Shown: positions 1 to 8,963, counted from the first letter of the stretch. The stretch is 64,000 nucleotides of DNA from an uncultured Alphaproteobacteria bacterium (GCA_963748455.1 CAVVJD010000014.1:445993-509992); one strand, 5' to 3'. Numbers and translations are program-made. Notes: generated by a model not told the origin, from the letters alone.

Positions 1-1087
1 AGCATAGTACTTCTCGATCATCTCCACGCTGGTGCGACAATTCTTTGCGATTTGATAGATGTCAGCCCCTTCCATCAGGCGCAGGCAAATATAGGTGTGG
101 CGTAAGCTGTATGCGGTACGCCGGTTGCCTTCGCGATCGATTTTGAGTTCCTGCTCATCAAGGATCGCGTTGAAGAGCTCGTGATGGCTCTTCGGAAAGA
201 TGAGGTCAGTTGGCTGCGGCTTGTTGCGTTCCTTCAGTCTCTGAAACGGCCGCACGGCGCCCATCGTGCTCTTGCAATATCCGACGCCGCGCTTGCCGCG
301 CACTTCAATTTCCAGAATTGTTTCGCGCGTGGCGTCGTCGCGGACGACGCTCACGTCGCGGTACTGAAGCCTTGCGGCCTCGTCAGGCCGCAGGCCGGTA
401 TTGGCCATAAACAGCACGTAGTCGTGCAACTGCTCGGATTGCCACATCCAGCGTTTCTTGAGCGGCTTGGCCGCCCTTCGGCGGGTCGCCACATAAAGCC
501 GCTTGTATTCTTCCGGCGAAAACCATGCACGGTGCGTAATTTTTCCGGAACGTCGGAAGGGTTCCGACAGATCAGGCAGATATGGAAGCCAACCGTGGCG
601 GTTGGCTGCTCTTAGGACTTGTCGGAGCGTGACGATCTCCTGGTGGATCGTCTGTCGCGCGGGTGGCTTGCCCCAGCGGGCAAGCGCCTTTTCGCGTCGG
701 TGAATACGATACTCCTGCACTAGGCCCGGCGTGATCTCCAAAACCGTCTTTTCACCGAAGAATGGCAGAAGGTGGTTGTCCAACCTGCGGCGGTGATCTT
801 GGACATAAACCGGGCTGCGATGCCCCTCCGTCATGACCTCGTATTCGCGCCAGAACGTCTCGGCAGCAAGGCGGAAGAGTTTTCCGTCTTTGATTTCACC
901 ACGCCGGTGTTTGCCCTTGAGTTCGAGATACCAATCCTCGGCAAATTCCTTGGCGAGCGCGAGGCTCTCTTCCTTCGTGCTGACACGACGATTCTTGCCC
1001 GAAAGAATAAGTGGAACACTGCCAATATCTGCTGTTCTCGCGGCGGTAGACGTGAAGCTTCCCGCCCATCAACTCATGGCTCTGCAT
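1..1087 (-). CDS. int: Tyrosine-type phage/island integrase, 3' end beyond window edge. The N-terminal ~20 codons are in a different frame, so there is an apparent frameshift near 1010.
   Basis: Reverse-strand translation reads continuously from about 1068 to 1: ...FMANTGLRPDEA...RTAYSLRHTYICLRLMEGADIYQIAKNCRTSVEMIEKYYA. This is the classic R..HxxR..Y catalytic C-terminus of tyrosine recombinases. An N-terminal YRRENSRYWQ motif in the adjacent frame (ORF 896..1087) implies a shift. No stop before position 1. Confidence 0.8.
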
Positions 1088-1117
1088 TTAACGTGGACCC
1101 CGCCGGCTCGCCGCTAA

Positions 1118-1236
1118 ACGAGCTGGTTTGTGTAAGTGTTGTGTAAGCGGATTCTAGGGGGTCCCGAGGCGCCAAAATCAAATACAAACTATTGATTTTA
1201 ATAAGAGAATTTTAACGAAAAATTATTTCCTTTTTC
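1118..1236. mobile_element. Element-end/att arm region: direct TGTGTAAG repeats (1121-1148) plus an AT-rich about 90-bp stretch between the integrase start and the tRNA fragment.
   Basis: Local GC drops sharply (aatcaaatacaaactattgattttaataagagaattttaacgaaaaattatttcc). Two copies of TTGTGTAAG sit 11 bp apart immediately upstream of int, a typical position for arm-type recombinase/IHF sites. Confidence 0.45.
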
Positions 1237-1276
1237 GACTTTAAGTCCAGTGCGTCTACCATTCCGCCACGCCCCC
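1237..1276 (-). pseudogene. tRNA-Leu(UAA) 5' fragment (acceptor, D-arm, anticodon loop CTTAAAG) truncated in the 3' anticodon stem. Putative attachment-site remnant of the integrated element.
   Basis: Minus strand reads GGGGGCG-TG-GCGG-AATGGTAGA-CGCA-C-TGGAC-TTAAAGT-C followed by AT-rich non-tRNA sequence. It aligns to bacterial tRNA-Leu 5' halves (GGTGGCGGAATTGGTAGACGC...). No T-arm (GTTCGAATC-like) or CCA-end follows. Confidence 0.6.
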
Positions 1277-1362
1277 GCCCTCGGCCTCACAGTGACGGCG
1301 AAGCTAGACGGCACGCCGCCAGCGCGCAACCTTTGTCGGCCCGGGCAACGGGCGCAAAAAAA

Positions 1363-1400
1363 CCCGGCCGGCGTCGGGACGCCAGCCGGGCTATGTCTCT
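1363..1400 (-). terminator. Rho-independent terminator (minus strand).
   Basis: Minus strand reads agcccggctggcgtcccgacgccggccggg followed by ttttttt: GC-rich hairpin plus T-run. Confidence 0.5.
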
Positions 1401-1649
1401 GCGGAGAGCGGGTCGCAGAGCGGGTCAATTCCCGTGCGGAACGCGGTCGAAATCGGGTCGTCTCAAAACACGCTGCTTTACAATTCCGGTCGGTGCGGGC
1501 CTATCAATGTCTGTTCTATGATCCCAGCATACCCCCGGATCCAGGCCGCCACTGTGACGTCGATCACCGACCGAACACTCTGATTCAGCGCGCTTTTTTG
1601 CGGCGGCTTGGCTAGGATGCGACGGTCCCGTCCTCGACCACTATGAGAC

Positions 1650-5496: not shown

Positions 5497-6255
5497 TCAA
5501 GGTGCGGGCTCTTCGGTCGGCTTGCCGCCGAAGGAGATCATCAGGGTCTTCAACTCGTCCGCGGCACTCGCCAGCGTCGCGCGCGTGTGGCCGCGCATGA
5601 CGATCGAGGTGCCGACCTGGCCCATGCGGAAATACGGGTACGAGCCGATCTCAAGATCGTTGTATTTGCTTTGCAGCGCGGTCAGGCCCTCGGCGAGCTT
5701 GCCTTCGGGTACTTCGGAGGTGACGGTCCAGGACAGCATCGGCTTGCCGCCCTTGAGGCGGTGCGCGATCCCCTCGAACATGGCGTTCATGATGCGTGGC
5801 ACGCCCGCCATCACGAAGACATTGCCGATCTGGAAGCCCGGCGCCTTGCTGACCGGGTTGTCGATCAGGATGCCGCCCTCGGGCACATTGGCCATGCGCA
5901 GCCGCGCCTCGTTGAGGTCGGCCGGATTGAGGTAGTGGCTCTGCAGGCGCGCGACCGCCTCCGGGTGGCGCAACAGGGGCACGCCGAAGGCCTTGGCGAT
6001 GCATTCGGCGGTGATGTCGTCATGGGTGGGCCCGATGCCGCCGGTGGTGAAGACGTAGTCGAATTTGGCGCGGACCTCGTTGATCGTGGCAATGATCGTC
6101 GCCTCGATGTCGGGAATCACGCGGCCCTCCATCATGCGCACGCCGATGGCATTCAGCTTCTCGGCCAGCCAGGGCAGATTGGCGTCCTTGGTGCGGCCGG
6201 ACAGGATCTCGTTGCCGATGATGATGATACAGGCGGTGACAGGCTTGTCGGTCAT
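5497..6255 (-). CDS. CinA-like / molybdopterin-binding (MoCF-biosynthesis domain) protein.
   Basis: CIIIIGNEILSGRTKDANLPWLAEKL...TTGGIGPTHDDIT is the canonical CinA N-terminal/MoaB-MogA fold signature. Confidence 0.85.
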   Translation of the reverse strand: MTDKPVTACIIIIGNEILSGRTKDANLPWLAEKLNAIGVRMMEGRVIPDIEATIIATINEVRAKFDYVFTTGGIGPTHDDITAECIAKAFGVPLLRHPEAVARLQSHYLNPADLNEARLRMANVPEGGILIDNPVSKAPGFQIGNVFVMAGVPRIMNAMFEGIAHRLKGGKPMLSWTVTSEVPEGKLAEGLTALQSKYNDLEIGSYPYFRMGQVGTSIVMRGHTRATLASAADELKTLMISFGGKPTEEPAP

Positions 6256-7150: not shown

Positions 7151-7978
7151 ATGAACGACATGCTCGCCGACCCCTGGGCGGACTCCAACAGCCGCTCCGT
7201 CAAGCTGCACAAAGCCGATGCCTTCGCCGCCATGCGCCGGGCCGGACGGCTCGCGGCCGAAGTGCTCGATTTCATCACGCCGCACGTCAAGCCGGGCGTG
7301 ACGACGGTCGAGCTCGACCGCCTGTGCCATGACTACATCATCGACCGCAAAGCCGTGCCCGCACCGCTGGGCTATCGCGGCTTTCCCAAGTCGATCTGCA
7401 CCTCCGTCAATCACGTCGTCTGTCATGGCATCCCCGGCGACAAGAAACTGGTCGACGGCGACATCATCAATATCGACGTCACCGTCATCCTCGACGGCTG
7501 GCATGGCGACACCAGCCGCATGTATTTCGTGGGCGATGTCGGCGTGCGCGCACGCAAGCTGGTCGACATCACCTACGAGGCGATGATGCGTGGCATCGAG
7601 GTGGTGAAGCCCGGCGCCACGCTGGGCGATATCGGCTACGCCATCCAGAGCTTCGTCGAGGCCAATCGCTTTTCCGTGGTGCGCGATTTCTGCGGCCATG
7701 GCCTGGGCCGCATTTTCCACGATGCGCCTTCGGTGCTCCATTACGGCGATCCGGGCACGGGCATGGCGCTGCGCGAGGGCATGTTCTTCACGGTGGAGCC
7801 GATGGTGAATGCCGGACGCTTTGAAGTGAAGGTGCTCTCCGACGGCTGGACAGCGGTGACCAAGGACCGCTCGCTGTCCGCGCAGTTCGAGCACTCGGTG
7901 GGCGTAACTGCCGATGGCGTCGAGATTTTCACACTGTCGCCGACGGGGTTGCATCGGCCGCCCTATAAGCCGACGTGA
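7151..7978 (+). CDS. map: Methionine aminopeptidase type I.
   Basis: Full-length MetAP-I: metal ligand context DGDIINIDVTV..GWHGD, FCGHGLG, FTVEPM. Confidence 0.95.
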   Translation: MNDMLADPWADSNSRSVKLHKADAFAAMRRAGRLAAEVLDFITPHVKPGVTTVELDRLCHDYIIDRKAVPAPLGYRGFPKSICTSVNHVVCHGIPGDKKLVDGDIINIDVTVILDGWHGDTSRMYFVGDVGVRARKLVDITYEAMMRGIEVVKPGATLGDIGYAIQSFVEANRFSVVRDFCGHGLGRIFHDAPSVLHYGDPGTGMALREGMFFTVEPMVNAGRFEVKVLSDGWTAVTKDRSLSAQFEHSVGVTADGVEIFTLSPTGLHRPPYKPT

Positions 7979-8075
7979 CAGCCAACGCCTCGCGCTGACC
8001 ACTGCCGTCCGGCGGGCTTTGCAAATTTTGAGAAACGTCTAGACTACACGGCCTCACGCGGACCGGAGGCCGACG

Positions 8076-8963
8076 ATGGACGCGAGCGACCTAAGAGTGT
8101 TCGAGGCGGTGGCGCGACTGGGCGGCATGAACCGCGCGGCCGCTGAACTTCACACCGTGCAGTCGAATGTCACGGCGCGGGTGCGCCAACTCGAGGACAA
8201 GCTCGGTGCGCCGCTGTTCGAGCGACACAGCCGCGGCGTCGCCCTCACCGAAGCGGGCCGTCGCCTCCTTCCCTACGCACAACAGATCCAGCTCCTCCTC
8301 GACGACGCGCGCCGCGCCGTCGCCGACAATGGTACGCCGAGCGGCAAGCTCACCATCGGGTCGCTCGAGACGACGGCCGCGATGCGGCTCTCGCCGCTGC
8401 TCTCGCAATACATCGCGATCTATCCGCAGGTCGATCTGGTGCTGCGCACCGGAACGACGTGCGAGCTGATCGACCACGTGCTCGACAATCGCGTCGAGGG
8501 CGCGTTCGTGTGCGGGCCGGTCGACCATCCGGAGCTCGACAGCGAAATCATGTTCCGCGAAGAACTCGTGCTGTCGACCGCGCCGAATTCGGGCGGGCTC
8601 GACGCGCAGGTGGCGGCGGGCGAGATCAAGCTCGTGGTGCTGCGCGCCGGCTGCTCCTACCGCCAGCGGCTGGAGGCTATCCTTGCCGCGCGCGGGGCCC
8701 TGACGACGCGTGTCCAGGAATTCGGCACGCTCGATGCAATCATTGGGTGCGTCGCCGCGGGGCTGGGCGTGACCCTCCTGCCGCGCAGCGTGGTCAGCGC
8801 GCCGTGGCGCGACGGGCGCATTGCCATCCACGATCTGCCCGACGGCGGCGGCAAGGTCGAGACGCTGTTCATCCGCCGGCGCGACCGGTTCGCCTCCAGC
8901 GCGCTCGCGGCGTTCCTCGCCCATGTGCGGCCCACCCCAATGCGGGCGGCGGCCGCTGAATAG
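8076..8963 (+). CDS. LysR-family transcriptional regulator.
   Basis: N-terminal HTH (LRVFEAVARLGGMNRAAAELHTVQSNVTARVRQLEDKLGAPLFER) and LysR substrate-binding domain. Confidence 0.9.
   Translation: MDASDLRVFEAVARLGGMNRAAAELHTVQSNVTARVRQLEDKLGAPLFERHSRGVALTEAGRRLLPYAQQIQLLLDDARRAVADNGTPSGKLTIGSLETTAAMRLSPLLSQYIAIYPQVDLVLRTGTTCELIDHVLDNRVEGAFVCGPVDHPELDSEIMFREELVLSTAPNSGGLDAQVAAGEIKLVVLRAGCSYRQRLEAILAARGALTTRVQEFGTLDAIIGCVAAGLGVTLLPRSVVSAPWRDGRIAIHDLPDGGGKVETLFIRRRDRFASSALAAFLAHVRPTPMRAAAAE

Follow-up and report, generated by a model that had tools for sequence, protein, structure and literature searches.

We analyzed a 64,000-nucleotide (nt) stretch of DNA from an uncultured Alphaproteobacteria bacterium (GCA_963748455.1 CAVVJD010000014.1:445993-509992; the whole stretch is referred to as "the window"), at whose left end a gene of a tyrosine integrase lies next to a fragment of a leucine tRNA gene. 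Positions 1-1290 very likely represent the integrase-proximal junction (attachment site attL, B-O-P') of a member of a widespread family of "disrupt-and-replace" islands, i.e. elements that would inactivate a tRNA-Leu gene upon integration and bring a complete one of their own. As judged from its junctions, the family integrase recombines in the anticodon loop of tRNA-Leu genes; the attachment site of the element (attP) has only about 10-13 bp in common with the target (GGA-CTTAAAA-TC), so that tRNA-Leu(UAA) is cut in two and not rebuilt. The 5' half stays by the integrase (1276->1237), and the 3' half, expected to read approximately ATCCAGTGGCTTCACAGCCGTGCGGGTTCAAGTCCCGCCGCCCCTACCA, would now lie beyond the window at the other end of the island. 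Two probable arm-type CTTACACAA sites are present in the P' arm, as in lambda-like systems. Islands of the family carry a complete tRNA-Leu gene of their own, which would offset the loss; it follows the integrase in the same orientation and, in the members that target UAA genes, is interrupted between U34 and A35 by a group I intron. The split, its position, the layout of the arm, the frameshift of the integrase and the family-wide replacement gene are shown by the sequences, and the presence of such a gene in this particular island and its immobilization by the frameshift are inferred. The window itself displays only the disrupted half of this story.

The truncated tRNA-Leu gene and its empty site

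The fragment of the host tRNA-Leu(UAA) gene occupies positions 1237..1276 on the minus strand and covers tRNA positions 1-40, as indicated by the Rfam tRNA model and by alignment with the syntenic locus L111. Read from 1276 to 1237 it is GGGGGCGTGGCGGAATGGTAGACGCACTGGACTTAAAGTC, which resolves into GGGGGCG, TG, GCGG, AATGGTA, GACGC, A, CTGGA, CTTAAAG and TC, i.e. the acceptor strand, the D-arm, the 5' strand of the anticodon stem, the loop with the UAA anticodon, and two further nucleotides. The variable arm, the T-arm and the 3' acceptor strand are missing. For this and all following analyses, tRNA genes were called with ARAGORN (also in its intron mode), and RNA families with Rfam covariance models at the gathering score. 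ARAGORN found no tRNA in the entire 64-kb window, and Rfam reported in it neither a tRNA nor an intron of the RF00028 family at the gathering score. The preliminary description of the window had noted a 40-nt match to tRNA-Leu. In a covariance-model search in 3'-truncated mode, the Rfam tRNA model aligned its positions 1-39 to the stretch ending at 1237 with 22.0 bits (E=0.005), and a shorter cut of the stub scored 18.7 bits; the same model gave no match to the stub in its full context.

The origin of the fragment is revealed by comparison with L111, which was obtained, together with another relative, L110, by an AraC protein search followed by contig look-up (a scan of a genome collection with the AraC protein returned distant homologues only, none with a tRNA nearby). 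The genes of L111 follow the same AraC-AlaX-EamA-CinA order as those of the window, the two AraC proteins are 82% identical, and at the corresponding place L111 has an intact tRNA-Leu(taa), thus representing the empty site; PALP and M24-peptidase genes are situated to the left of this tRNA gene. Window positions 1276->1240 are identical to the first 37 nt of this gene (37/37), and the upstream flank aligns too. The identity ends within the loop, where the window reads CTTAAA-G-TC-GAAAA and L111 reads CTTAAA-A-TC-CAGTG. Since the stub matches the tRNA of L111 up to the loop, the fragment is real and derived from the host, and foreign DNA starts within the loop. The joint between host and element, i.e. 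the remnant of the recombination core (loop CTTAAAG plus TC), lies at 1237..1245 on the minus strand, as placed by this alignment and by the junctions of two complete islands, L100 and L061, discussed below.

The elements listed in the preliminary description (the tRNA fragment, AT-rich DNA, repeats and integrase) are all present, with small corrections of coordinates. Its interpretation of the region as an end of an integrated element that targets an anticodon loop is borne out by the empty site and by the same breakpoint in about 60 relatives. As it also stated, the tRNA is not reconstituted at this junction: the stub breaks off two nucleotides after the loop, and the tRNA search over all 64 kb came back empty. 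The first of the two causes it considered, inactivation of this tRNA-Leu copy by the integration, proves correct in view of the empty-site comparison and the conserved junctions in relatives, and the chromosomal tRNA-Leu(UAA) gene at this locus is dead.

The stub is preceded by about 75 nt of host flank (1277..1348, minus strand, from the alignment with the empty site), which likely comprises the promoter region of the tRNA gene; a candidate promoter, TTGCGC-N17-TAGCTT, was assigned by eye only.

The integrase and the attachment arm

The integrase gene occupies positions 1..1087 on the minus strand (ATG at 1087), as defined by translations, homologues and the PHROG_1 profile, and the window contains 361 of its approximately 394 codons. 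The final 33 codons lie beyond window position 1 and were supplied by the source gene call P0035 (311 aa, 100% identical), which starts downstream of a frameshift. PHROG_1 (integrase) matches residues 7-366 of the closest relative, P0001, with E=5.2e-32. In the window protein itself the Pfam families PF00589 (E=3.9e-4) and PF14659 (E=1.6e-4) both remain under the gathering score, the former with 20.7 bits at a cut-off of 27.1; NCBIfam contained no model for this integrase, and a sequence search of the PDB gave no match. At least 7509 homologues exhibit 65-79% identity and come from Micavibrio, Rhodospirillales, Methylocystis, Planctomycetes and many metagenomes. By eye, the catalytic motifs ANTGLR, YSLRHT and EKYYA can be recognized and do not vary among relatives, and both His positions look substituted throughout the family. 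Thus, of the "canonical RHR-Y" tyrosine integrase proposed earlier, the integrase assignment stands (PHROG_1 E=5e-32), but the canonical character appears doubtful, given the sub-threshold PF00589 match and the apparent substitutions; judging by these matches, the protein is a divergent branch of the tyrosine integrase superfamily.

The reading frame is interrupted at 1001..1009 (minus strand, from comparison of the frames with relatives) by one extra T (+1). Near 1003-1007 the window reads ACT TAT TCT TTC GGG, versus the expected ACT TAT CTT TCG GGC (T Y L S G), so that the window protein runs ...YWQCSTY/SFGQES, and the sequence of relatives, YWQCSTYLGGKNRRVSTKE, continues in the next frame. 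The relatives themselves are unbroken (YWQCSTYL(G/S)GKNRRVSTKE). The frameshift noticed near 1010 in the preliminary description is therefore real in the sequence at hand; the decay of the island that was suggested on its account is only a possibility. The frameshift cuts off the N-terminal arm-binding segment from the main open reading frame, and the integrase, as encoded here, is probably inactive. If the frameshift is genuine, it has probably immobilized the island.

The P' arm extends from 1236 to 1088 on the minus strand, with 176 nt between the loop and the conserved MGG of the integrase. Its element-derived part at 1148..1236 (minus strand) is AT-rich from about 1171 to 1236, and is followed by two CTTACACAA direct repeats 11 bp apart (1147->1139 and 1136->1128, minus strand), which appear as TTGTGTAAG on the plus strand at 1128-1136 and 1139-1147. 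By their sequence and their recurrence in the arms of the family, the repeats are probably the arm-type integrase sites of the P' arm. The G+C content is 50-60% on the integrase side versus 62-70% in the chromosomal flank. The arm also contains two sigma-70-like promoter matches at 1209-1249 (minus strand), aimed at the integrase. The intact promoter region of the host tRNA gene is likewise located upstream and has the same orientation. From these sites combined, transcripts could extend into the integrase gene and, in relatives, further on into the gene of the replacement tRNA. We also considered a binding site of the integration host factor (IHF), for which the arm has a consensus match, AATCAATAGTTTG, at 1197->1185 (minus strand); the strict consensus occurs in only 5 of the 70 arms of relatives, i.e. 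it is weak, and we rejected it as a feature of the family.

Conservation of the junction in the family

The family was sampled as 87 relatives of the window locus, of which seven (L022-L028) came from an exact-protein look-up and 80 (L029-L108) from metagenome contigs. The complete arrangement, from the truncated 5' half of tRNA-Leu through the AT-rich arm and its TTACACA pair to the integrase, is present in 58 of these 87 loci, from many hosts; the acceptor stems of the host halves differ between loci, which indicates that the hosts are independent. Wherever the upstream sequence suffices, the 5' half stops just past the loop, with the anticodon UAA or CAA. The distance from the loop to the integrase is 150-177 nt in relatives, and a (C/A)TTACACA pair is found 80-110 nt after the loop in the arms of 70 distinct relatives. 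In L061, L062 and L024 the repeat pair is also present on the arm at the far end (P), so that arm-type repeats with predicted integrase binding flank these elements on both sides.

Complete islands allowed us to locate the other half of the target. In L100 and L061/L062, whose islands measure about 6.2 kb, the 3' half of the host tRNA lies about 6.2 kb downstream, and its 3' acceptor strand pairs with the 5' half upstream of the integrase (TCCGGGC/GCCCGGA and CGTCCGC/GCGGACG). The element DNA that precedes this 3' half matches the target only over GGA(C/T)TTAAAA(TC), about 10-13 bp, and comparison of the junctions of L100 and L061 limits the crossover to TTAAAA of the loop. At the junctions of L100 and L061 no tRNA is rebuilt at either end, and the attP of the complete islands never carried a tRNA 3' half. 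The cargo of L100 and L061/L062 comprises Fic, DUF6088, an AAA_14/DUF4143 ATPase and a PD-(D/E)XK nuclease, and that of larger relatives, which is of the defence or toxin-antitoxin kind, includes AbiE, GmrSD, type IIG restriction-modification and Abi_C proteins. We saw no phage genes in the complete small islands, and a scan of the IMG/VR viral contigs revealed no family member, the sole match being partial and 29% identical.

Two relatives, Micavibrio L024 and L039, are canonical exceptions, in which an intact tRNA-Leu gene adjoins the integrase and no extra tRNA is present; at a distance of 10.2 kb, L024 has a 56-nt repeat that covers the tRNA from its loop to its 3' end. Seven further loci (L029, L035, L066, L070, L075, L083 and L094) contain, within 250 nt upstream of the integrase, attP-like junctions with the TTACACA pair, core and P' arm but without the full 5' half, which suggests tandem islands or circular forms. 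L083 has an additional intron fragment at 5584-5730.

Replacement tRNA-Leu genes and their group I intron

In most relatives a complete tRNA-Leu gene is present on the same strand, about 20-250 bp past the integrase. We tallied these genes in loci with a truncated target and readable downstream sequence. Among the loci with a truncated UAA target, 27 carry an intron-containing gene at most 700 nt from the integrase, three carry it 1-3 kb away, and one (L081) has none, i.e. a replacement gene is found in 30 of the 31 UAA-targeting relatives. The loci with a truncated CAA target are more diverse: an intronless tRNA-Leu(CAA) is present in 12 and no replacement in another 12, and single loci possess a distant tRNA-Leu(CAA) (L085), an intron-containing CAA gene with C at -1 (L107), or an intron-containing UAA gene (L091). 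No replacement accompanies the intact targets of the two canonical loci.

The intron belongs to group I, is 200-250 nt long, and sits between U34 and A35, within the very sequence recognized by the integrase. RF00028 exceeds the gathering score inside the split tRNA-Leu gene in 11 loci, all of them relatives of the window locus, with 50.7-66.6 bits. The exon borders in about 25 parsed loci are CTT/A...G/AAAATC, and the exons joined by the predicted splicing are recognized by the intron mode of ARAGORN as tRNA-Leu(taa). The element tRNA has one and the same acceptor stem (GCGGGCG/CGCCCGC) whatever the host, and no pairing is possible between it and the host 5' half next to it, which indicates that the gene belongs to the island and travels with the integrase. 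For the same reason we rejected the idea of a "mini-element", in which the mobile unit would consist of the arm and the integrase and the downstream tRNA would be the rebuilt host gene: the 3' acceptor strand of the downstream tRNA pairs with its own 5' exon and not with the host half. We also looked for another class of intron in the CAA-clade loci without a tRNA call; Rfam detected none in 8 loci, and the gene is absent or reduced to a remnant.

These regularities bear on the window through its closest relatives. Among the eleven nearest sampled integrases, the downstream sequence is readable in ten, and the gene with the intron is present in all ten loci (10/10; integrases 72-80% identical to that of the window); in the eleventh, L038, the tRNA-Leu(CAA) is intronless. 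We therefore expect, with good confidence, that the island in the window carries a replacement tRNA-Leu gene about 150-450 bp past the left edge. The functional copy of tRNA-Leu(UAA) for this locus is thus probably island-borne and intron-containing, and hence not called by standard tRNA finders. That such finders miss intron-containing genes fits the impression, given by the window alone, that no functional tRNA-Leu is nearby.

The uneven distribution of replacement genes can be related to the coding role of the two tRNAs. Where tRNA-Leu(UAA) is encoded by a single gene, decoding of UUA depends on it, and the replacement should be retained by selection even as an island decays. On the other hand, tRNA-Leu(CAA) is dispensable where tRNA-Leu(UAA) reads UUG, which would explain the frequent loss of the replacement among CAA-targeting members and the near absence of such loss among UAA-targeting ones. 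In L079 (11260-11330) only the 3' part of the element tRNA-Leu (the variable arm, the T-arm and CGCCCGCACCA) follows the integrase; this resembles a halfway stage on the way to losing the replacement gene among the CAA-targeting members.

Several other variants were observed. In L107 (2978-3291) the element tRNA-Leu(CAA) has a group I intron after C rather than U (CTC/A...) and adjoins an integrase that split a host tRNA-Leu(CAA). In L085 a complete tRNA-Leu(CAA) is located 3.5 kb past the integrase (L085:14650-14880 and L085:9795-9870), and its 5' half with about 50 nt of the upstream flank duplicates the integrase-proximal junction, i.e. the gene was rebuilt distally with a captured 5' half. 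GC-rich hairpins with GGAACC centres (CCAGGATGGAACCATCCTGG, GGGGCCGGAACCGGCCCC and GGCCCGGAACCGGGCC) are conserved in L071, L074, L079, L081, L085-L090 and L040, within the first 150 nt after the integrase or the element tRNA. Just past the intron-containing tRNA-Leu gene, ARAGORN reported "tRNA-Stop (tta)" on the complement strand in L078 (1763-1847) and L083 (11719-11803); behind these calls there may be a second sequence resembling tRNA-Leu(UAA), read in antisense.

Alternative explanations

Several points weigh against the interpretation of the window as a disrupt-and-replace junction. Compensation at this locus is an extrapolation from relatives, and the expected position of the replacement gene lies past the left edge of the window. 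The loci were picked by their likeness to one integrase and include near-identical copies, so their counts are not counts of independent events. Integration, splicing and expression of the islands are all predicted from comparison of sequences. The frameshift, which makes the island appear immobile, may be a sequencing error. Finally, the loci with truncated targets and no replacement, L081 with a UAA target and 12 with CAA targets, demonstrate that disruption is not always accompanied by compensation.

The last point is the basis of the alternative that fares best, namely that the island, although a member of the family, lacks a replacement tRNA-Leu gene, either because it never gained one or because it lost it in decay, and that the host has a second tRNA-Leu(UAA) or tolerates the loss. 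The absence of the gene from these 13 loci, the mere 3' remnant in L079 and the frameshifted integrase of the window, which may signify a decaying island, are all compatible with such a state. The presence of the gene in 30 of 31 UAA-targeting relatives and with the ten nearest integrases whose downstream sequence is readable speaks against it, as does, on general grounds, the selection for reading of UUA, and we regard it as unlikely. More improbable still is a scheme in which the island bears a copied 5' half with a promoter at its far end, so that tRNA-Leu is rebuilt distally and the stub in the window is a displaced duplicate. Exactly such a case is provided by the tRNA-Leu(CAA) of L085; however, it was seen once, in a CAA clade distant from the integrase of the window, and the complete UAA-type islands L100 and L061 end in a bare 3' half.

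The second cause considered in the preliminary description, a later rearrangement that removed the element-borne 3' half, amounts to a canonical island whose attP-supplied 3' half was deleted or rearranged away. Canonical relatives with an intact tRNA by the integrase do exist (L024 and L039), but the breakpoint, the 176-nt arm (150-177 nt in relatives) and the repeats of the window match dozens of independent junctions that do not rebuild the tRNA, and the attP of complete islands lacks a tRNA 3' half. A secondary deletion would not reproduce this geometry, so the proposal finds no support and we give it very little credence. That the stub is a chance tRNA-like sequence or an assembly artefact beside an unrelated integrase, as might be thought from its modest covariance score (22 bits) and the lack of a match in full context, is practically negated by its 37/37 identity to a real syntenic tRNA-Leu with a conserved flank and by the recurrence of the whole composite throughout the family.

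The intron as a possible mask of the attachment site

The coincidence of the intron with the crossover site raises the possibility that the intron, far from being a passenger, masks the crossover sequence, so that the DNA of the replacement gene would contain no host-type attachment site (attB), and its spliced RNA would still be a normal tRNA. Such masking would prevent the island's own integrase, or that of an incoming sister element, from destroying the replacement gene or deleting the integrase. As a corollary, the islands would spread the intron-containing tRNA-Leu gene between phyla and could replace the native gene for good. We regard this proposal, taken together with its corollary, as speculative and rather doubtful. 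The retention of the intron in 30 of the 31 UAA-type islands is circumstantial evidence for masking. Where the element tRNA is intronless, its core differs from that of the target in all 15 readable loci (15/15), but this is no test of masking, because bacteria differ in their anticodon stems anyway and the loci share ancestry. In L108 the gene that an island has entered is itself a CAA gene of the element type; protection by masking, if there is any, is thus not absolute.

The locus L110, whose AraC is 83% identical to that of the window, is of interest in this context. It possesses an intron-containing tRNA-Leu(UAA) at 7930-8240 (minus strand; RF00028, 53.8 bits), in the chromosomal position that is occupied by the plain gene in L111 and by the stub in the window. 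No integrase was found there, no host-type 3' half is present within 8 kb, and the tRNA-proximal flank differs. Among several possible histories, this arrangement fits one in which islands have replaced the native gene.

Relationship to known systems

The closest parallel known to us is the tRNA-dependent lysogeny of actinobacteriophages (Fionnbharth, Cluster K4/L), in which the core is about 10 bp and the tRNA is not rebuilt, whereas the 78% identical integrase of Boilgate uses a long core and the tRNA is rebuilt (Guerrero-Bustamante & Hatfull 2024, PMC10865867). Common to both systems are a tyrosine integrase, arm-type sites and an anticodon-loop target, and the split between Boilgate and its relatives parallels that between Micavibrio L024 and the rest of the family described here. 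The differences are considerable: our carriers are small islands that are not phages and whose cargo is of the Fic, AbiE, restriction-modification, GmrSD and nuclease types, their hosts are Proteobacteria and other Gram-negative phyla, and the target is tRNA-Leu rather than tRNA-Lys. Furthermore, the replacement gene directly follows the integrase and is interrupted by a group I intron at the point of recombination, and the need for the tRNA is presumed here.

Integrases that target tRNA genes reportedly include an anticodon-loop class in the classification of Williams (2002). The present family resembles that class in that the crossover lies in the 7-nt loop flanked by a stem and the integrase lies by the tRNA on the same strand. 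The description of the Islander database states that an island restores the tRNA gene with its own 3' part (PMC4383910). Here, in contrast, only L024 and L039 restore it, and the junction in the window leaves a stub. As with the displaced fragment of Islander-type islands, the host 3' half does mark the far end in L100 and L061. Islands are usually located, and deemed harmless, because the tRNA is rebuilt; this family breaks the rule outside actinobacteriophages, and finders that seek a regenerated tRNA and a displaced fragment would therefore miss or misplace its members.

Group I introns of tRNA-Leu have been catalogued, including Leu.3Ug (UAA) and Leu.3Cg in Proteobacteria, with no link to an integrase or island (Williams 2020 preprint, 10.1101/2020.01.27.920355). 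The introns of our relatives occupy the same CUU/a...g/AAAA site as Leu.3Ug, and that of L107 is the C(-1) variant in a CAA gene; in contrast to the catalogue, the introns described here are associated with an integrase and an island, and none lies within the window. We found no paper that ties an integrase island to an intron-containing tRNA-Leu gene, although such an absence is no proof of novelty. Two things appear to be new, namely the non-phage nature of the carrier and a replacement tRNA that contains an intron; the disrupt-and-replace principle is already known. The association of a self-splicing intron at U34/A35 with a recombinase that targets the same nucleotides offers a candidate route for the horizontal spread of intron-containing genes, and hints at a possible function of the intron, namely masking of the attachment site.

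Features of the chromosomal flank

Outside the island, in conserved host DNA, an intrinsic terminator of the upstream chromosomal transcript was identified at 1392->1361 (minus strand) by a terminator search and alignment; the part assigned to it spans 1351..1392. The surrounding region between the stub and the AraC gene (1349-1640) is strongly conserved in both L110 and L111 and contains a hairpin at approximately 1400-1421 (minus strand), followed by the intrinsic terminator. All matches to Rfam small RNA families in this region are sub-threshold; the region may encode a small RNA transcribed toward the tRNA-Leu gene.

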